Virus record (IMG/VR): IMGVR_UViG_3300017408_000001
Location: 1-43,448 of that record
DNA: 43,448 nt
Direction: 5' to 3' (one strand)
Source of the DNA: a virus
Part shown: positions 9,532-26,366 of the stretch, in pieces
Numbering within the stretch: position 1 is the first letter of the stretch
Layout: every line of letters starts with the position of its first letter
The notes under the pieces: model-generated
The model's database searches: none
What the model was told of the DNA's origin: nothing
What the model saw: only the letters and a program-made list of their open reading frames with translations
Position numbers and translations under genes: made by a program

Positions 9532-9605
9532 TGGAGCGACCAGCCGGGTTCGAACCGGCATCATCAGGGTGGAAGCCTGAGGCCCTACCGTTGGACGATG
9601 GTCGC
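9532..9605 (-). tRNA. tRNA-Gly (anticodon UCC) with encoded CCA
   Basis: The reverse complement folds as a 74-nt cloverleaf. Acceptor GCGACCA/TGGTCGC, D arm GTCC-AACGGTA-GGGC, anticodon arm TCAGG-CTTCCAC-CCTGA, variable TGAT, T arm GCCGG-TTCGAAC-CCGGC, discriminator T, CCA. Confidence 0.9.
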
Positions 9606-12806: not shown

Positions 12807-14195
12807 TCACCCACCCCGCATGTAGAAATCGGAGTTGCGGATCGATTGGCGGTTTCCAAAGAACCACGATGTGCGACGGCAGAGCGCGCCTTGGCGGTTC
12901 TTCGCGGAGTAGATTTCAAGCTTGTCTTTCGCCGCCGCCATATCCTCCTCCCATTTCTGCCGTTTGGCATCCATGGAGTTGGGCTCGGTGCGCTCGAGAT
13001 AATACTGATCGCGGTAGACGAAGACGACAATGTCAGCGTCCTGCTCTAGCGAGCCACTGTCACGCAGGTCGCGCAGCTCGGGGTGTTTATCTTCGCGCTG
13101 TTCAACGGACCGGTTTAGCTGCGTCAACACGATCACCGGGACCCGGTTCGATCGCGCAGCCATCTTGATGGCTTTGCTGATCGCGGTGACCTCCTCGTTG
13201 CGGTTAGTCGCCGGTGGCGGGTCGACCAAGCCGAGATAGTCGATCACGACCAGTCCGAGCTTGTGCCCTCGCTGCTCGAACTTGCGAGCCTGCTGCCGTA
13301 TGACGGCGTTGATCTGGTCGGCACCGAATGTTTCTGGATCGATGATGACGAGCGGCCAGTCGCGGATCTTAGCGCCGATCCTGCGCAATAGAACCTTGTC
13401 ATTGTCGGAGACATTGCCCTCACGAATATCCTGAAAGGTCGCTTCCCCGCCATACTTGGCCAGGAGGTCCGCCTGTATGCGCGGCATCAGTTCCACGATG
13501 TCCATCTCGCGGCTGATGTACAGCACACCATGCCCAGCCGCCGCCGCGCGCCAGGACACGCCCAAGGACAGCGCGGTCTTACCCATGCTCGGCCGCCCGC
13601 CGATCAGGATGTATGCGCCAGGCATCATGCCGCGCGTAATGTCATCCCAGTCCTGCAAGTCTCTGAGCAAGATGCCGGGCTCGATCTCACCAGCTTGGAT
13701 GCTGTCGATCCGGTCATTGGCCGTCGCGAACGCATCCACCAGGGTATAGGTTCTCGCATTCAATCCTGGGGTCGCTTCGGGCGGAACCTCACCTTGTGCC
13801 GCGACTGCATCAACGGTGATGGAAAGGTCCGAGCAAGCGTGGGTCGCGGCTACGAAGCGCTCGCGCAGATTACGCCTAAGCGCCAAGTCAATCAGCTGAT
13901 CGGCCAGACCTTGGGGTCCAAGCAGGCCCATCCCGTCAGACGTCAGCCTCGCAAGATACCCAACGCCGCCCAGCTGCGGCAGATCGGGATCGTCGTCAAA
14001 ATGGGGCTTGAGGATAACCGGAGTTACAGTCTTGCCGCCGCCGTGCATTTTCAGCACCGCCGCGTAGATGCGCTGGTGGATCGGGAGAGAAAAATGATCA
14101 GGCCGCAACCGGTCAGCCACCAAGTCGATCACTGCGGCATCGCCGACCATCAACGCCCCAAGGAGCGCAGCTTCTGCCTCGACGTTTTCAAGCAC
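12807..14195 (-). CDS. dnaB: Replicative DNA helicase DnaB
   Basis: 462 aa. N-terminus AEAALLGALM.... Walker A GGRPSMGKTALSL. Also VVIDYLGLV, LTQLNRSVEQR and RDSGSLEQDADIV. Confidence 0.95.
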   Translation of the reverse strand: MLENVEAEAALLGALMVGDAAVIDLVADRLRPDHFSLPIHQRIYAAVLKMHGGGKTVTPVILKPHFDDDPDLPQLGGVGYLARLTSDGMGLLGPQGLADQLIDLALRRNLRERFVAATHACSDLSITVDAVAAQGEVPPEATPGLNARTYTLVDAFATANDRIDSIQAGEIEPGILLRDLQDWDDITRGMMPGAYILIGGRPSMGKTALSLGVSWRAAAAGHGVLYISREMDIVELMPRIQADLLAKYGGEATFQDIREGNVSDNDKVLLRRIGAKIRDWPLVIIDPETFGADQINAVIRQQARKFEQRGHKLGLVVIDYLGLVDPPPATNRNEEVTAISKAIKMAARSNRVPVIVLTQLNRSVEQREDKHPELRDLRDSGSLEQDADIVVFVYRDQYYLERTEPNSMDAKRQKWEEDMAAAKDKLEIYSAKNRQGALCRRTSWFFGNRQSIRNSDFYMRGG

Positions 14196-14410: not shown

Positions 14411-14457
14411 TGTCCATTTTGGGCACACGGCAAGTCGCTTGTGTCCAATTTGTGCAC
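14411..14457. promoter_or_regulatory. Two related operator-like sites in the cI/cro intergenic region
   Basis: TGTCCATTTTGGGCACA at 14411-14427 and TGTCCAATTTGTGCAC at 14442-14457. The shared pattern is TGTCC-N7-GCAC, and the starts are 31 bp apart. A weaker third match, TGTCCGTTTTAAGCG, overlaps the cI start (14511). Confidence 0.6.
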
Positions 14458-14509: not shown

Positions 14510-15115
14510 ATGTCCGTTTTAAGCGAAGCCATCCCAAGCCGTGTCCGTGCATTGCGTATGGAAAAGGGATGGTCGCTGGCTGAATTAGCAGAGCGGGCAG
14601 GGACGACGGCGTCACAGATCATGAAGCTCGAGAAGTCCCAGCGTCGGCTTGATCTCGCGTGGATAGAGCGCCTTGCTGCCGCTTTTGAGATTTCAGGGGG
14701 CGAGCTGCTTGGCAACGCTCCGCAGTATCCAGTTCACCCCTTTATGATCCCCTTGATCGGAGACATCGCCGCTGGGAACTGGATGGAGGCAGTACAGCAG
14801 AACCCCGAGATGATCTTCTCTCCCGTGGACGACCTCAGCGACAAAGCTTTCGCGCTACGCACGAAGGGCGACAGCATGGACAAGATCATCCCCGATGGCG
14901 GTTACGTAGTGATCGACCCGACGGACGCGGAGTTGCGCGAGGGCAAGGTGTACGCGGTGATGAACTCTGATGGTGAGACAACGATCAAGCGCTTTCGGAG
15001 CGATCCAGCAAGGCTGGAACCATGCTCAAACAATCCAGAGCACCAGCCGATAAGCTTGGGTCGGGAGCAGTTTGTTGTGCTTGGGCAGGCAAAGGGCGCT
15101 TTCGTGCCTCTCTAA
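14510..15115 (+). CDS. cI: CI/LexA-like repressor (XRE HTH + S24 autopeptidase)
   Basis: HTH: IPSRVRALRMEKGWSLAELAERAGTTASQIMKLEKSQR. LexA-type cleavage context: PLIGDIAAGNW. Catalytic motifs GDSM and a downstream Lys (TIKRF). Confidence 0.92.
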   Translation: MSVLSEAIPSRVRALRMEKGWSLAELAERAGTTASQIMKLEKSQRRLDLAWIERLAAAFEISGGELLGNAPQYPVHPFMIPLIGDIAAGNWMEAVQQNPEMIFSPVDDLSDKAFALRTKGDSMDKIIPDGGYVVIDPTDAELREGKVYAVMNSDGETTIKRFRSDPARLEPCSNNPEHQPISLGREQFVVLGQAKGAFVPL

Positions 15116-20822: not shown

Positions 20823-21037
20823 CCGGAGCGGCACAGCGCGACCGTCGGCGCGACAATCTCGTGCGCCTATCTGATGTGAAGGCCCGTACCGGCCTGTCAC
20901 GTTCAACCATCTACCGGCGCATGGGCGCTGGCACTTTCCCTGTGTCGCAGCCGCTCAGCACCGGCATGGTCGCTTGGTACGAGAGCGACATTGATGCGTG
21001 GGTTGCTGACCCTATGGGGTGGAGGGCGACGGCATGA
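20819..21037 (+). CDS. AlpA-family HTH regulator / excisionase candidate
   Basis: LVRLSDVKARTGLSRSTIYRRMGAGTFPVSQPLSTGMVAWYESDIDAWV matches the Phage_AlpA/HTH_17 pattern. It lies near int. Confidence 0.8.
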   Translation: MTGAAQRDRRRDNLVRLSDVKARTGLSRSTIYRRMGAGTFPVSQPLSTGMVAWYESDIDAWVADPMGWRATA

Positions 21038-21300
21038 GGATACCGGAGATCCGCGATCGGCTGCACCAGCTGGCCGACGAACATGGCATAGCTGAACTAC
21101 ATGACTTGGCCGAAGAAACCCGCCGACGGTCGCCGTTGCGCGTAGTTCGGGCGAGATGGCCCCGCCTGACGCCAGAGCAACAGCAGGCCGTTCGGTCGGA
21201 ATTCGAGGACAATCCCAGCCTAGGCGTGAAGGACTTAGCCGACCGGTTCAACACATCGATCGGCCGCATATCCGAGACGATAAGAGGCTTTAGATCATGA
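21034..21300 (+). CDS. Hypothetical 88-aa protein with C-terminal HTH-like segment
   Basis: ATGA overlap and a GGAGGG RBS. Contains LGVKDLADRFNTSIGRISETIRG. Confidence 0.5.
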   Translation: MRIPEIRDRLHQLADEHGIAELHDLAEETRRRSPLRVVRARWPRLTPEQQQAVRSEFEDNPSLGVKDLADRFNTSIGRISETIRGFRS

Positions 21301-21572
21301 GCGACCAGCCGACCAACCGGGATGAGGACTACCAGGATCAACTCGACCATCGGGCGCAACTACTGGCTAATCTAGCGGGTGAGCTAGTGGACGATCCCGA
21401 TGAGACATTAGGCTTACTTGCTCAGGCCCAGATGCTTGCCGCCATGGAGCACTTAACCCTGAAACAGTGGGCAGACGTTCAGCTTGAGACGGCCGAGAAC
21501 ATGTACGCGTCTATTCAAGCACGCCTGCTGGATGGAGAAGATGATAACTACAAGCCTCAGTTCCGTCGTTGA
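21297..21572 (+). CDS. Hypothetical acidic 91-aa protein
   Basis: ATGA overlap. Its 3' end overlaps the convergent int 3' end by 16 nt. Confidence 0.5.
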   Translation: MSDQPTNRDEDYQDQLDHRAQLLANLAGELVDDPDETLGLLAQAQMLAAMEHLTLKQWADVQLETAENMYASIQARLLDGEDDNYKPQFRR

Positions 21573-22858
21573 CCGTCCATCAGCGCGGCGGCGGGGGCCA
21601 TGTCCTTTATCAGCAGATCGGCCCATTCCTGCGATAGCTCGCGCCGCCGCTCCATGTGGCCGGCGCGATCGTAGGCGGCCTTGACCTTGTTCTCCGGCAC
21701 GTGAGCCAGCATCAGCTCGATCACGGCCGGGTCGCTCAAGCTCTTCCGCTTGACCGCCAGGCTGTTCATCGTCGTCGAGAAGCTGGATCGCCAGCCGTGC
21801 GGCACATGGCGCCCGAAGAACCCGACCCGGTTGTAGAGGTAGCCGATCGCGTTCTCGCTGATCGGCCGGTGGCTGTGGCGCTGACCGGGGAATACCAGCC
21901 GCCCACGCCCAGTGAGCCGGTACACGGCGCGCAGAACTTCGACGGCCTGCCAGCATAGTGGCACCTGATGCTCGAAATGTTCTTCGTCCTTCAGATCCAA
22001 GACCAGCTTCATGCGCTGCGCCGGGATTGTCCACGTAGGCAGGAAAGGGCCGAATGCGGTATCTTCCCAGTCGATGCCCTCGAACTCCGACCATTCGGCA
22101 CCGCGCACCATGCCTGGGCGCGACTGCGTGAGAGCGAGGAACCGCGAGGCCAGTTTGGTTACAGGTGAAGCGCCTGAAGCCTCGGCGGCGATCAGTACCT
22201 CGCGGGCCGCGTTCGGATCGGTAATTGCCGGCTGCTTGCCCTTCTTCGGCAACGGCTTGAGAGCCTTGCCGACGGCGGCGGCCGGGTCGACCGCCACGAT
22301 GCCTTCCGAGATCGCGTAGGAATAGACGGATGATATGCGCTGGCGCAGCCGCTTGGCCGTTTCGATGGAGCCCCTGTCCTCAACGGCGCGCAGAGCCTTC
22401 AGGACTAGCGGCGCATCGATTGTCACCAGCGGCTTCGCGCCCAGCGCCGGGAAGACGTCACGCTGCAGGCTGGTGATCACGTCGTCAGCATGGACCGGCG
22501 CCCAGCGCGGAGCCTGGAGCGCGAACCACGTGCGAGCGGCCTGCTCGAAGGTGACGAGCTTGGCCTGCTCGGCCTTCTCCTGCTCCTTGGCGTCCTGGGC
22601 GCGCTTGCGCGCACCTGACGGGTCTTCGTGGTTTCGGATCTTGCGCCTGGCCTCGTCGCGCCGCTCGCGCGCCTCGCTCAGCTTCACGTCGGGGTACGGC
22701 CCGAATGTCAGCAGCTTCTCCTTGCCGTGGAGCCGGAACTTCATGCGCCAGGACTTGAGACCCGTCGTTGCGACATACAGGTAGAGGCCGCCAGCGTCGG
22801 CCATCTTGTACGGCTTCTCGCGAGCGGCAGCGCCCTTCACTTCCTTGTCTGTCAGCAC
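21557..22858 (-). CDS. int: Tyrosine integrase, P4-like (DUF4102 N-terminal arm-binding domain)
   Basis: N-terminus LTDKEVKGAAAREKPYKMADAGGLYLYVATTGLKSWRMKFRLHGKEKLLTFGPYPDVKLSEARERRDEAR. The C-terminal catalytic region has HGWRSSFST and LAHV...Y. GTG start. Confidence 0.95.
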   Translation of the reverse strand: MLTDKEVKGAAAREKPYKMADAGGLYLYVATTGLKSWRMKFRLHGKEKLLTFGPYPDVKLSEARERRDEARRKIRNHEDPSGARKRAQDAKEQEKAEQAKLVTFEQAARTWFALQAPRWAPVHADDVITSLQRDVFPALGAKPLVTIDAPLVLKALRAVEDRGSIETAKRLRQRISSVYSYAISEGIVAVDPAAAVGKALKPLPKKGKQPAITDPNAAREVLIAAEASGASPVTKLASRFLALTQSRPGMVRGAEWSEFEGIDWEDTAFGPFLPTWTIPAQRMKLVLDLKDEEHFEHQVPLCWQAVEVLRAVYRLTGRGRLVFPGQRHSHRPISENAIGYLYNRVGFFGRHVPHGWRSSFSTTMNSLAVKRKSLSDPAVIELMLAHVPENKVKAAYDRAGHMERRRELSQEWADLLIKDMAPAAALMDGQRRN

Positions 22859-23115
22859 GATACCCCGACCTCCAATTCCAGTACCCCGCCTTGTGCCACC
22901 AATACCCCCAAGCTGGGGCGGAACAAAGCGAGACGCCTTGGAACTCGGCCTTATCGGAGAAATGGCGGAAAAGCTACCCTCTCGGGACAGTTTGGCATTG
23001 GTTGGAGAGCAGTCTTGGCGGAGCGGGAGCCCATCACAAGGTTAGCGATAATCCGCAGAACTCCGCCATTCGTCCGGCTGTGATCCAGAGTGATACCCCG
23101 ACCGATACCCCGACC
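22859..23115. other. Candidate attP region with arm-type repeats
   Basis: GATACCCCGACC occurs at 22859-22870, 23092-23103 and 23104-23115. Degenerate copies are AGTACCCCGCC (22880) and AATACCCCCAA (22901). The three left-arm TACCCC cores are spaced exactly 21 bp apart, and all copies share one orientation. Confidence 0.55.
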
Positions 23116-23485
23116 CAAAATGAGACGCGGCAGGAAGCTCTGGTTCGTCTGCGACATCGGGATCCAAACTCACGCGCATAACCAGGCCGAGCGTCGCATC
23201 TGGCAGGTGCGATCCTTTCACCCTCTCGACTATCGCCCGCACGTCATAGCCGCGATCCATCTTGCTGCCGATCCAGACGGCGCGGTCCCGGCGCAGGTAG
23301 CCGACGCGGACACCACGGCAGCTGAACACGGCCACCGCCATGCGATCGTGCGGGTTCTCGGGCTCCCGCACCAGATGCACCTGCTCGCCCGGCGCGCATA
23401 GCGCCAGCTCGGCCTGACGGCTGGTGCCGTCCTCGTTGTCAAACCACTCGCCGACCGCCGGCAAGCTGAAGTCGTTCCAACCCAT
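23042..23485 (-). CDS. Stand-alone HIRAN-domain protein
   Basis: GEQVHLVREPENPHDRMAVAVFSCRGVRVGYLRRDRAVWIGSKMDRGYDVRAIV matches the HIRAN pattern (...L.REP.NP.D..A..V....G..IGY...). The low-complexity C-terminal tail (GSGYRSGYHSGS) is encoded by the att-arm repeats. Confidence 0.7.
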   Translation of the reverse strand: MGWNDFSLPAVGEWFDNEDGTSRQAELALCAPGEQVHLVREPENPHDRMAVAVFSCRGVRVGYLRRDRAVWIGSKMDRGYDVRAIVERVKGSHLPDATLGLVMRVSLDPDVADEPELPAASHFGSGYRSGYHSGSQPDEWRSSADYR

Positions 23486-23502
23486 GCGCGTCTACTCTAT
23501 GA

Positions 23503-23527
23503 GAACATAAGTGGAACATGCTAGAAC
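23503..23527. promoter_or_regulatory. Putative LexA (SOS) box, alphaproteobacterial type
   Basis: GAAC-ATAAGTG-GAAC (23503-23517) matches GAAC-N7-GAAC exactly. A third GAAC lies at 23524-23527 after 6 nt. It is centred in the 75-bp divergent intergenic region. Confidence 0.5.
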
Positions 23528-23560
23528 GAAGTCAGTCGAGTCGCATAGAGGGATTTGCAC

Positions 23561-23953
23561 ATGGAAAATGCTTCGAAGCTGGACGAGTTGAGAGCCGAAG
23601 TGGCCAGGATCGAAAGCGAGCCGGGGTTTGACTTCGCGGCCTCGGTGCCGTCGCAGCGCCCTGCCCCCACGCCCGCTCCTGCGCCACTGCCGGACGAGCT
23701 ACCGCCTGTGGTCGGCCAGTTCGATGATGTCGCCGAGGTCGACGGCGCTCGCCAGCCGTTCGGCGCGTGGCTGCTCGAGCAGGGCCAGCGCAAAGGCTGG
23801 ATCGCCGACCTGGCCAAGTGGGCGAAGTCCGATCGGGGCTTCCCCAAGAACGGCAGCGTCGAGGATGTGCGCAAGCGACTTACGGCGGTCTATGCTGAGG
23901 GCGACGCGTACGAGGCGCTGGAAGATGCTGAGCTGGACTGGGCAGCGCTATGA
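23561..23953 (+). CDS. Protein with Pro-rich linker and C-terminal YozE-like SAM-like domain
   Basis: A GAGGGA RBS lies 7 nt before ATG 23561. The C-terminus FGAWLLEQGQRKGWIADLAKWAKSDRGFPKNGSVEDVRKRL...AYEALEDAELDW resembles the YozE_SAM_like pattern (F..WL...I..LA....D..FP....). Confidence 0.5.
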   Translation: MENASKLDELRAEVARIESEPGFDFAASVPSQRPAPTPAPAPLPDELPPVVGQFDDVAEVDGARQPFGAWLLEQGQRKGWIADLAKWAKSDRGFPKNGSVEDVRKRLTAVYAEGDAYEALEDAELDWAAL

Positions 23954-24273
23954 GCCCGACCGCCATCGTTGAGGGATCGGACGTCCGCGCCAAGGTACAG
24001 CAGCTGGCCAACGGGCGGCACGTGAGCCTCGCAAGCCTGTCGCGTCTGGTGGGCAAGAATGCCAGCTACCTGCAGCAGTTCGTGACGCGGGGTTCGCCGA
24101 AGCAGTTGGGCGAAGACGAGCGTCTGGTGCTGGCGCAGTTCTTCGGGATCGATGAGCGCGAACTTGGCGCGCGGGAGCCGTGGCACCCGGCGCAGGGCGC
24201 CAGCACTTGTAGACGCGAGGCTGCGGACAGGCGCATGACGGTTGAGGCGAGTCGGCCTGATCGCGGAGCGTGA
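23950..24273 (+). CDS. HTH-type putative transcriptional regulator (107 aa)
   Basis: ATGA overlap with the previous gene. SLASLSRLVGKNASYLQQFVTRGSPKQLGEDERLVLAQFFGIDEREL resembles XRE/phage-repressor HTH proteins. Confidence 0.5.
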   Translation: MSPTAIVEGSDVRAKVQQLANGRHVSLASLSRLVGKNASYLQQFVTRGSPKQLGEDERLVLAQFFGIDERELGAREPWHPAQGASTCRREAADRRMTVEASRPDRGA

Positions 24274-24275
24274 CG

Positions 24276-24476
24276 ATGACAAGCACTGAACTGGCGGATT
24301 GGAAGTATGCGAGCGAGTTCATGGCGCAATTCGGTGACGATGCGCCAGACGAGCTTCTTCGGCAGCTCAAGCATCTTAACGAGGTGGGCGACCATGAGGG
24401 TGGCCGCCGCCTGATCAAGCTGGTCGACCTGATCCAGGCACTTACGCCGGGTCCAGAGGATGGCGCGGCGAACTAG
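24276..24476 (+). CDS. Hypothetical acidic 66-aa protein
   Basis: GGAG lies 6-7 nt before ATG 24276. An in-frame GTG at 24270 overlaps the previous stop. Confidence 0.45.
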   Translation: MTSTELADWKYASEFMAQFGDDAPDELLRQLKHLNEVGDHEGGRRLIKLVDLIQALTPGPEDGAAN

Positions 24477-24487
24477 CACCAATGAAA

Positions 24488-24519
24488 AAGGGCGCCCTGG
24501 CCGAAGCCGGGACGCCCTT
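24488..24519 (-). terminator. Rho-independent terminator between convergent genes
   Basis: AAGGGCGCCC...GGGACGCCCTT forms a 7+3-bp stem with a one-base bulge. On the minus strand it is followed by TTTTTCATT, so it is oriented for the dam transcript. It probably also stops the plus-strand operon. Confidence 0.7.
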
Positions 24520-24551
24520 CTGCGTACATGGGGGAATGCACGGGCGGGCGC

Positions 24552-25481
24552 TTACCCGTTCGTGACGATCAGTTCACCCGCCCGCTTGCCTTTACCCACG
24601 GTCGCGGTCGCCAGCGTGTAGGTGGTCTGCACCTCGTCGAACGCAAACCGTCCGAACACGTCTCGCGCGCCGGCTGTGTCGTTGATCGACAGAATGAACC
24701 GGCCCGCGATCCCGGCCAGCTGCTCGGCCAGCCGTTCGAAGTCGGCCCGCTCGAACCCGCTGTCGCCATAGTCCGTCTCGCAGTCCCAGTAGGGCGGATC
24801 GAGATAGAACAGGACGTCGGGCCCATCATAGCGTCGGATCAGATCGCTGTAGTTCAGCTGTTCGATCACGACGCCAGCAAGCCGATCGTGGATCTCGGCC
24901 AGCAGCGGCTCCAGCTTGCTCACGTCGAACCGGCCGGGAGTGCGCCGATCGACACCGAAGTTGCGCCCGTTCACCTTGCCGCCGAACGCCAGGCGCTGGA
25001 GGTAGAGGAACCGGGCCGCGCGCTCCAAGTCGGTCAGCGTGCCAGCGTCGACCTTCACCAGCCGCGCGAACTCGGCCCGACTGGTGATCTGCCAACGCAG
25101 CACATCCATGAACTGCGGATAGTGCCGCTGCAGGATGCGGAACAGGTTGGCCACGTCGCCCGACAGGTCGTTGATGACCTCGGCACGTGGCCGGCTGGTG
25201 CGGCGCAGGAACACGCCGCCCATGCCCACGAACGGCTCGACGTAAGTGTTGTGCGGGATGGTGGCAATCTGGGCGACGAGGCGCTGCGCCAGGTTGCGCT
25301 TGCCGCCGACGTAAGGCGCGGCCGGCGAGGCCGGGCGCACAGGCGTAAGGTCCCCTGGAATTCCAAGGCACCCTTCCGAAACGGGAATACCCGTTTCGGC
25401 TTGCGGGAAGTCAACGGGGATTGCCGTAGACGTCTGCTGGTCCCTGCTGATCTGCAGGGACCGATCTTCGATAGACTCCAT
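24552..25481 (-). CDS. dam: Orphan DNA adenine methyltransferase, Dam/D12 class
   Basis: Motifs PYVGGKRNLAQRL (motif X/I region), FVEPFVGMGGVF (AdoMet site) and FYLDPPYW (DPPY catalytic motif). There is a 55-aa N-terminal extension, and an internal GTG start is possible. No adjacent restriction gene was recognised. Confidence 0.9.
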   Translation of the reverse strand: MESIEDRSLQISRDQQTSTAIPVDFPQAETGIPVSEGCLGIPGDLTPVRPASPAAPYVGGKRNLAQRLVAQIATIPHNTYVEPFVGMGGVFLRRTSRPRAEVINDLSGDVANLFRILQRHYPQFMDVLRWQITSRAEFARLVKVDAGTLTDLERAARFLYLQRLAFGGKVNGRNFGVDRRTPGRFDVSKLEPLLAEIHDRLAGVVIEQLNYSDLIRRYDGPDVLFYLDPPYWDCETDYGDSGFERADFERLAEQLAGIAGRFILSINDTAGARDVFGRFAFDEVQTTYTLATATVGKGKRAGELIVTNG

Positions 25482-25859
25482 GATGTGTGGTGCTCATACA
25501 AGCCCCGCCCTGTCAGGGCAGCGGGGCGTTAGCGGCTAGGCCAGCCGCGCGTGACGAGGAGGTGCCCACCACTCGTCGGTTGCCGTGTTAGCGCACGGCA
25601 CCCCCGCTCCGGCCTAAATACGGGATTTGCCCGTAATTAGATGCCAGGCGGACGTGTCTCTTAAGGCGTGGATCCGAACTACCGGGAAATATGCGGTAGT
25701 TGCCTAAAAAATGGCGGTTTTCTGCGGCTTTGACCGTGGATCCGAAGGTGGTGAGTCCGCAGGCCCGAAATGGCAGTGAGCAGCACCCGAAAGCCGCAGA
25801 TTTCTGCGGTTTATAGGGGGTGATCCGACCTGGAGCGCACAACCCCCTTTTCAGGTCTA
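25482..25859. other. 378-bp hairpin-rich non-coding spacer (candidate sRNA/leader/terminator cluster)
   Basis: Stem-loops lie at 25502-25527, 25553-25577, 25581-25600, 25619-25635, 25677-25701, 25794-25809 and 25815-25848 (the last is followed by TTTT on plus). An 11-nt inverted repeat pairs TCTGCGGCTTT (25721) with AAAGCCGCAGA (25790). A 12-nt direct repeat CGTGGATCCGAA lies at 25667 and 25735. No ORF with an RBS is present. Confidence 0.6.
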
Positions 25860-26366
25860 TCACGGTACGGCGATAACGTCGAAGACGATGCCAGCGCCAG
25901 CCACCTTGCGTGGAAATAGCCCCAGGCCACCGATCGACTGATCGATGTAACATTTGATCGTGGCGCCGGTCGTAGTGACGGTGCCGATCACGCCGTAGCA
26001 TTGCGGCACCGCCTGGTCCGCGCTGGTGACGTACTCGGTGATGTCGAGCGCAGGCACGGTCGGCATCGCAGCCCACGTGATCGTTGCCGTGCCGTTCGAC
26101 CCGGTCACCGCTTGCTTGACCGACCGCGTGATCCGAGGCGCCTGCGCGCCGATCGGACGGAACACGAGCGACGGGTCGGCCACTCCTGTCGTAGTCATGT
26201 CGGGCGATGGGATCGTCGTGGCGGGCTGCGGGATCTGCGCGGCGATCGCCGTCACTTCCGACTTCGTCGCAAGCGTGCTCGTGTCGACAGGCTTGGGCAC
26301 GACAGCGAGCTGCGCGTGCGCGGCGCCAGGAAGCGCTAGAGCGAGGGCATAGATCAGATGGCGCAT
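25860..26366 (-). CDS. Secreted hypothetical protein (168 aa)
   Basis: An AAGGAG RBS lies 5 nt before ATG 26366. The N-terminus MRHLIYALALALPGAAHAQ looks like a signal peptide. The rest is Thr/Ala/Pro-rich and looks beta-rich. Confidence 0.6.
   Translation of the reverse strand: MRHLIYALALALPGAAHAQLAVVPKPVDTSTLATKSEVTAIAAQIPQPATTIPSPDMTTTGVADPSLVFRPIGAQAPRITRSVKQAVTGSNGTATITWAAMPTVPALDITEYVTSADQAVPQCYGVIGTVTTTGATIKCYIDQSIGGLGLFPRKVAGAGIVFDVIAVP

Follow-up and report, generated by a model that had tools for sequence, protein, structure and literature searches.

A candidate operator for the host LexA repressor in the divergent control region of an accessory module in a sphingomonad prophage

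We analyzed a stretch of 43,448 nucleotides (IMG/VR virus record IMGVR_UViG_3300017408_000001, positions 1 to 43,448), here referred to as the window, which is a circularly permuted temperate phage genome with the structural genes on the minus strand. The site at 23503-23517 is likely to be the operator of the LexA repressor of a sphingomonad host, located in the divergent control region of an accessory ("moron") module at the attachment edge of the prophage. A sequence-only reading of the window had suggested that this site is an alphaproteobacterial LexA box that puts the flanking genes under host SOS control, and it is supported by how the site scores, by its unique placement and conservation, by the order of the host and by the motif identified in sphingomonad lexA promoters. 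The occupancy by LexA, the promoter elements, the repression in both directions and the role of the module are what we infer from these comparisons, and they are worded accordingly below.

An independent round of gene calling for the source contig (ENA ERZ27250644, k141_383180, 43,466 nt) recovered the genes identified in the window (Table 1). A megablast search with the whole window against the phage collection gave weak matches only, to methyltransferases of Sinorhizobium phages and, as a 78% match, to an integrase in an unannotated "Bacteriophage sp." record, and no annotated close relative was found. A tRNA-Gly(TCC) gene is located at 9532-9605 on the minus strand, among the structural genes.

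Table 1. Coordinates of the features in the window that are discussed in the text, with the basis for each assignment.
Feature	Position	Strand	Basis or remark
DnaB	12807-14195		
cI repressor, HTH_3 and Peptidase_S24	14510-15115	+	AAG, GDSM and K self-cleavage motifs; separate switch
Tyrosine integrase (int), Arm-DNA-bind_3 type	21557-22858	-	
Gap between the HIRAN gene and int, probable attP region	22859-23041	-	Repeats, tRNA-like end and tRNA placement in relatives
Standalone HIRAN-domain protein, 147 aa	23042-23485	-	PF08797; phrog_27141; ATG 17 nt from the box
Putative -35-like hexamer ATGAGA, rightward promoter	23499-23504	+	Alignment; overlaps the first GAAC
Candidate host LexA operator (alphaproteobacterial SOS box)	23503-23517	-	Sequence; 20.5/19.1 bits; conservation
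Putative -10-like hexamer TAGAAC	23522-23527	+	17 nt after the -35; contains the third GAAC
CGAGTCG, fits YGAKTCK, contains a GANTC CcrM-type site	23537-23543		Invariant; separated from the box by 19 nt and followed closely by the Shine-Dalgarno sequence
YozE/UPF0346-like protein, 130 aa, first rightward gene	23561-23953	+	PF06855 sub-threshold; homologs; structure prediction
107-aa protein, weak HTH signal, second rightward gene	23950-24273	+	Some relatives only
Small ORF, 66 aa, last rightward gene	24276-24476	+	No family match
D12-class adenine methyltransferase	24552-25481		

Score, conservation and host of the candidate box

The site reads GAACATAAGTGGAAC in the window and GTTCCACTTATGTTC on the minus strand, which is the coding strand of the HIRAN gene. 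It is an exact match to GAAC-N7-GAAC, with a third GAAC at 23524-23527 following after another 6 nt (ATGCTA), and it lies in the 75-nt gap between the start codons at 23485 (-) and 23561 (+); both the repeats and their placement were as described in the sequence-only reading, and the independent gene call gave the same genes. The LexA motif of Alphaproteobacteria is GTTC-N7-GTTC (PMC3323433, PMC9578287, PMC7987155).

We examined the frequency of the core and of the full 15-mer separately. The bare GAAC-N7-GAAC core was found twice in the window as compared to 1.18 expected, with two or more copies in 36 of 100 shuffled sequences, and matches with one mismatch numbered 27 as compared to 29.3 expected. 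The core is thus present at chance frequency, and its count by itself proves nothing. The full site was scored with a position weight matrix made from 32 Caulobacter LexA boxes in SOS promoters supported by ChIP-seq (PMC12700426 S6 table). With this matrix, which is not derived from the host order, the box scored 20.5 bits, as compared to 14.2-24.9 bits for the training boxes, and differs at one base from the box of Caulobacter CCNA_03319, GTTCCACTTTTGTTC. The runner-up in the window scored 12.1 bits, which is 8 bits lower, and the other exact match to the core (4492) scored less than 6 bits. A score of 20.5 bits was reached anywhere in just 2 of 300 simulated 43-kb sequences. With regard to the concern that the motif might occur at chance frequency throughout the genome, the full 15-mer is far from chance.

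A second matrix was made from sites in sphingomonad lexA promoters, and here the box scored 19.1 bits, with a median of 19.8 bits for the sites themselves and 11.3 bits for the runner-up in the window, a comparison that is partly circular because the sites had been pre-selected with the Caulobacter matrix. The box is 17 nt from the start codon of the HIRAN gene and 43 nt from that of the YozE-like gene, and both distances fall inside the distribution for the Caulobacter boxes, most of which are located 0-107 nt upstream of the coding sequence, with a few that overlap the coding sequence or are located inside it.

The box was retained in all of the 13 HIRAN-bearing relatives, which consist of three IMG/VR contigs and ten genomes, with scores of 15.8-24.0 bits for the Caulobacter matrix. 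The first base of the box is located 29-34 nt upstream of the HIRAN start codon in these relatives, and the GTTC half-sites always read toward the HIRAN gene (13/13). We aligned 13 of the intergenic regions (the window and 12 relatives), for which the mean column identity was 62%. The invariant columns correspond to AGAAC, GAAC, a single T, the G-A-N-T-C and parts of the Shine-Dalgarno sequence, such that the half-sites of the box are invariant, the spacer is variable and the surrounding sequence diverges among the relatives. A matrix scan for background, as suggested along with the sequence-only reading, showed that high-scoring sites are not scattered: in the 173 kb of the window and the 13 relatives, searched on both strands, only 16 sites scored at least 15.8 bits, of which 14 are copies of this box and two are located upstream of int (L009, L011).

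Three more distant loci with YozE-like genes also retain the box, with scores of 15.8 bits (L171/L172), 22.5 bits (L173) and 22.8 bits (L170). Locus L170, from a Rhizobiaceae MAG, has a gene for an SRAP protein (1236-1892) in the divergent position, where it replaces the HIRAN gene, while in L172 an SRAP gene (1910-2536) is located downstream in the rightward operon with the YozE-like gene. Both belong to PF02586, the SOS response associated peptidase, which owes its name to a genomic link with the SOS response (PMC3765255).

As a separate observation, a HIRAN homolog in Qipengyuania atrilutea (L016, 5900-6000), which has no YozE-like neighbor, is associated with a variant box, GATCTCTTTTTGTTC, of 17.1 bits, and a palindrome, GAACCCTTGTTC, is present about 40 nt further upstream.

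The relatives also point to the host. Proteins with 58-82% identity to the HIRAN protein were identified in Novosphingobium soli, N. resinovorum, N. silvae, N. panipatense, several Sphingomonas and Qipengyuania, and the 10 close relatives of the HIRAN gene that come from genomes, either named or MAGs, all belong to the Sphingomonadales (Alphaproteobacteria). We identified a lexA gene on a replicon of Sphingomonas parapaucimobilis by tblastn searches of plasmids and chromids, and its promoter reads cTTGACg...GTTCcatataaGTTCcgcgtctGTTC...ATG, with the arrangement GTTC-N7-GTTC-N7-GTTC. A scan of metagenomes with this LexA protein gave 80 loci with 66-93% identity, which were assigned to sphingomonads by the LexA identity alone. 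Among the 78 usable upstream regions of these sphingomonad-like lexA genes, 66 have a site that scores 13 bits or more no further than 120 nt from the start codon. The promoters (L088-L168) mostly carry the tandem GTTC-N7-GTTC-N7-GTTC, with two boxes that overlap, downstream of a conserved CTTGAC -35 element. A few of the upstream regions (L113, L135, L136, L153) have no recognizable box.

Since the sphingomonad lexA promoters carry GTTC-N7-GTTC, the host LexA protein very probably has this specificity, as judged from its autoregulatory sites. The sequence-only reading would fail with a host that is not an alphaproteobacterium of this LexA specificity, and both the order of the relatives and the lexA promoters argue for an alphaproteobacterial host with this specificity. 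A homolog search with a Caulobacter-like LexA query retrieved Caulobacter LexA proteins only and was uninformative with regard to the host order. Our search of the literature on the LexA regulon of sphingomonads recovered nothing directly relevant, and no experimentally defined regulon for the Sphingomonadales was found.

Phage regulators, integrase control and other explanations

One alternative is that the repeat is the operator of a regulator encoded by the phage or by the module itself, such as cI, the 107-aa HTH protein, or the YozE-like or HIRAN protein acting on its own promoter. Repeats that serve the phage's own regulators are common in phage control regions, an HTH-like gene is present within the operon, and the SAM-like fold predicted for the YozE-like protein could bind nucleic acid. 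However, cI differs from LexA, which has a winged helix, in its XRE-type HTH, and the candidate operators of cI, TGTCCAnTTTGnGCAC, are unlike the GAAC box. Most relatives that retain the box have no gene for the 107-aa HTH protein; both proteins were rejected as binders for these reasons. The similarity of the site to host LexA boxes extends beyond the tetramers to the spacer preferences, and the box is retained in L170 despite the replacement of HIRAN by SRAP. We therefore consider a phage or module regulator improbable. The candidate cI operators TGTCCATTTTGGGCAC and TGTCCAATTTGTGCAC adjoin the cI gene. The control of the module appears separate from that of cI, as the sequence-only reading had proposed. 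Two copies of TGTCCA(T/A)TTTG(G/T)GCAC, 31 nt apart (14411-14426 and 14442-14457), are located between a small cro-like ORF and the cI gene, and these repeats are probably the cI/Cro operators.

The second alternative accepts the site as a LexA operator but assigns it the control of int and excision as its main task. It was proposed because the HIRAN gene and int are arranged in tandem on the minus strand in the window, with HIRAN running from 23485 to 23042 and int, from 22858 to 21557, following after 183 nt. Furthermore, the loci L009 (7971-7985) and L011 (8363-8377) contain an identical, separate LexA-like box, TTTCCTGCTATGTTC, of 17.9 bits. It is found between the att-side tRNA gene and int, about 90 nt upstream of the latter, and suggests SOS control of int in these two prophages. 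The counterpart in the window (22921-22935, CGTCTCGCTTTGTTC) is degenerate, however, and scores only 8.3 bits. In addition, the linkage of the two genes varies, which implies that int control is not the conserved role of the box: int is convergent with the HIRAN gene in L003, L009 and L011 and located 3.8 kb upstream in L015, while host-like genes follow directly after the HIRAN gene in L008, L012, L013 and L017, with no int within 6 kb.

The gap between the two genes probably also contains attP, in which case HIRAN would be the terminal gene of the prophage and separated from int in the lysogen. The HIRAN stop codon is followed directly by a sequence similar to the 3' acceptor end of a tRNA, CTCCCGCTCCGCCA, at 23016-23029 (-). 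This sequence lies about 160 nt upstream of int, and tRNA genes are found at that distance upstream of the homologous int in L009 (tRNA-Ser) and L015 (tRNA-Lys); the tRNA-like sequence is probably the attP core. Immediately upstream of int are three direct repeats of GGGGTAYYG with an exact spacing of 21 nt at 22858-22908 (-), GGGGTATTGG, GGGGTACTGG and GGGGTATCG, of which the last overlaps the start codon. Four similar repeats are present upstream of int in L009, and the repeats are probably arm-type or autoregulatory sites of the integrase. We regard int control as a quite unlikely main task for the box.

Very unlikely, in our judgment, is a third alternative, in which another host regulator that binds direct repeats with an 11-bp period, such as a response regulator of the OmpR/PhoB family or CtrA, recognizes the site. 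Half-sites that are one helical turn apart are typical of winged-helix response regulators, and the half-sites of the CtrA box, TTAA-N7-TTAAC, are spaced as in GAAC-N7-GAAC. However, the half-site is GTTC and not TTAA, the score is mid-range among the LexA boxes of two orders, and the neighboring genes encode domains associated with DNA damage, HIRAN and SRAP (PMC3765255). Finally, a chance occurrence of two GAAC tetramers at a 7-nt spacing in intergenic DNA that is AT-richer and to which nothing binds, although compatible with the counts of the core and of its one-mismatch variants, is effectively refuted by the margin in full-site score within the window, by the restriction of comparable sites elsewhere in the 173 kb to the two upstream of int, and above all by the conservation at the same offset, amid variable flanks, in the 13 HIRAN-bearing relatives and the three distant loci, which are not near-identical sequences.

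Control region and a model for SOS control

The host LexA protein thus remains the preferred binder, and the arrangement of the region suggests how it could act. The order of elements is conserved: the HIRAN ATG, 17 nt, the box (15 nt), 19 nt, CGA(G/T)TCG, the Shine-Dalgarno sequence and the ATG of the YozE-like gene. A generic scan of 21000-26000 for sigma-70 consensus promoters and terminators gave none in either direction, and the -35 and -10 elements were consequently assigned by hand from the alignment. For the putative rightward promoter, we tabulated the -35 hexamer, the 17-nt spacer and the -10 hexamer at 16 loci. The hexamer at the -35 position is TTGAGA in 5 of the 15 aligned relatives, and xTGAGA or a near variant (TTGAGA/ATGAGA/GTGAGA, TGAAGA, CTTGGA) in 11 of the 15; it is xGTAGA in L010, L014, L015 and the reversed L170. 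The T at 23522, the first base of the -10-like hexamer, is invariant across the 13 aligned sequences.

The third GAAC, which coincides with this -10-like hexamer, was considered as a third half-site for LexA and rejected because its position is not conserved: it follows at a spacing of N6 in the window and N9 in L001 and L009, and is absent elsewhere. It is probably part of the -10 element. In the HIRAN direction, a search by hand gave no convincing pair of -35 and -10 elements. With the box only 17 nt from the start codon, the HIRAN promoter must either overlap the box or be located upstream of it.

The second conserved element, CGA(G/T)TCG, was identified at all 16 loci. It starts 33-36 nt after the start of the box in the 15 loci of the HIRAN type and in L170 it is found on the side toward the operon, about 30 nt downstream from the box. 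Its background frequency is 0.2 per kb per strand, and the GAGTC core is located at 23538-23542 in the window. YGAKTCK is the extended methylation motif of CcrM/GcrA (PMC7987155). The element may represent a second input, linked to the cell cycle, or a conserved element of the 5' untranslated region.

In the model, a LexA dimer would occupy GTTC-N7-GTTC in the undamaged lysogen, 17 nt from the HIRAN start codon, and on the other side it would fill the spacer and overlap the -35 element of the rightward promoter, so that both the HIRAN gene and the operon would stay off. Upon DNA damage, RecA would become active and LexA would cleave itself, by which the module would be expressed. The cI repressor, which contains an S24 self-cleavage domain, would be inactivated in parallel, and the SOS induction of the module would be independent of cI cleavage.

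The chromosomal SOS boxes of Caulobacter crescentus, Rhodobacter, Sinorhizobium and Rhizobium have the same direct-repeat core, with a T-rich spacer that ends in (T/C)GTTC, and share the range of distances to the start codon with the box in the window. They differ in that the box described here is located in a phage genome and serves a divergent gene pair rather than a chromosomal repair gene. In Gammaproteobacteria, LexA-controlled promoters of temperate phages include p95/tum of coliphage 186, those of the Gifsy antirepressors and PrstA of CTXphi. As in these phages, an operator for the host LexA protein inside the prophage would make a phage transcription unit respond directly to SOS. However, the operators of the gammaproteobacterial phages are CTGT-N8-ACAG palindromes, as compared to the alpha-type direct repeat in the window, and the genes that they control encode antirepressors or replication proteins that drive induction, where the module here consists of the HIRAN and YozE-like accessory genes. 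Nor does the phage belong to the class of 186 Tum and Gifsy, in which an antirepressor is paired with a repressor that is not cleaved in response to RecA, since the cI protein appears to be self-cleavable and searches of Pfam and PHROGs gave no match to an antirepressor family for the genes that flank the box. The control of prophage promoters by LexA is a general concept (PMC12527982), and the regulation described here is of a known and fairly ordinary kind, with no new regulatory principle.

If the site works as proposed, temperate phages of sphingomonads, besides having a cleavable repressor of their own, place an accessory module under the SOS repressor of the host, and the alphaproteobacterial LexA regulon would extend to mobile elements in an order for which no regulon has been mapped. 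It would also tie the standalone HIRAN protein, the YozE-like protein and, in relatives, SRAP to induction by DNA damage, which provides leads to their function. The model is easy to test because several lysogens are in culture, namely Novosphingobium soli CCM 7706 (L008), N. resinovorum (L009), N. silvae and N. panipatense.

The genes of the module

The HIRAN protein matched PF08797 with an E-value of 5.5e-13 and a score of 49 bits, which is above the cutoff of 24.7 bits. In contrast, the match of the 130-aa protein to PF06855 was below the cutoff (E-value 1.3e-3, 19.3 bits as compared to 25). Only 18 homologs of this protein were identified in a large protein collection, of which five have a precomputed hit to PF06855. 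A C-terminal domain of four helices (residues 66-130) was predicted with pLDDT values of about 76-91, mostly 88-91, and this domain is conserved in all relatives. The top PDB matches in a Foldseek search, 2kvs and 2o6k, are both proteins from S. aureus, the latter annotated as UPF0346, and they were weak (E-values of 0.5-3, target-normalized TM-scores of 0.47-0.60). Thus, the operon that the sequence-only reading had named after YozE was recovered with the same genes in the independent gene call, while the name itself, given the sub-threshold profile and structure matches, is plausible but not established.

The domains in the module suggest a role, although the association of HIRAN with the SOS response is not a general one. 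We asked whether distant HIRAN homologs in other phyla (L018-L087) have the LexA box class of their own hosts upstream, and in 33 kb found one CTGT-N8-ACAG and no GAAC-N4-GTTC, so that there is no general link between HIRAN and SOS. A literature search for a connection of HIRAN or YozE to LexA regulation gave no results. The cassettes of SRAP and other SOS-linked accessory genes, as defined by gene neighborhood (PMC3765255), have in common with the module that DNA-damage domains are linked to LexA control, but differ in that the window has no SRAP gene and the partners are the standalone HIRAN protein and the YozE-like protein. Because of HIRAN and, in relatives, SRAP, the role of the module is probably the handling of damaged or replicating DNA.

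A broader interpretation, which we regard as possible but doubtful, is that the conserved arrangement of the box, the invariant YGAKTCK element and the operon with the YozE-like gene, together with a HIRAN or SRAP partner, represents a previously undescribed, LexA-repressed damage module of prophages that would be under the control of both SOS and the CcrM/GcrA cell cycle. It would provide the first functional context for the YozE/UPF0346 fold, namely dealing with damaged or replicating DNA while the prophage is induced.

A further small protein was observed in the relatives. It consists of 60-98 amino acids (mostly 60-68), contains the motif RYRIAVFGRPRSPWR..EAMADAI.L.LASWD.S.REWFLAVPV and is absent from the window and without a Pfam match. 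Its gene follows the YozE-like gene in most relatives of the Novosphingobium type and was seen in L001, L002, L003, L008, L009, L011, L012 and L013.
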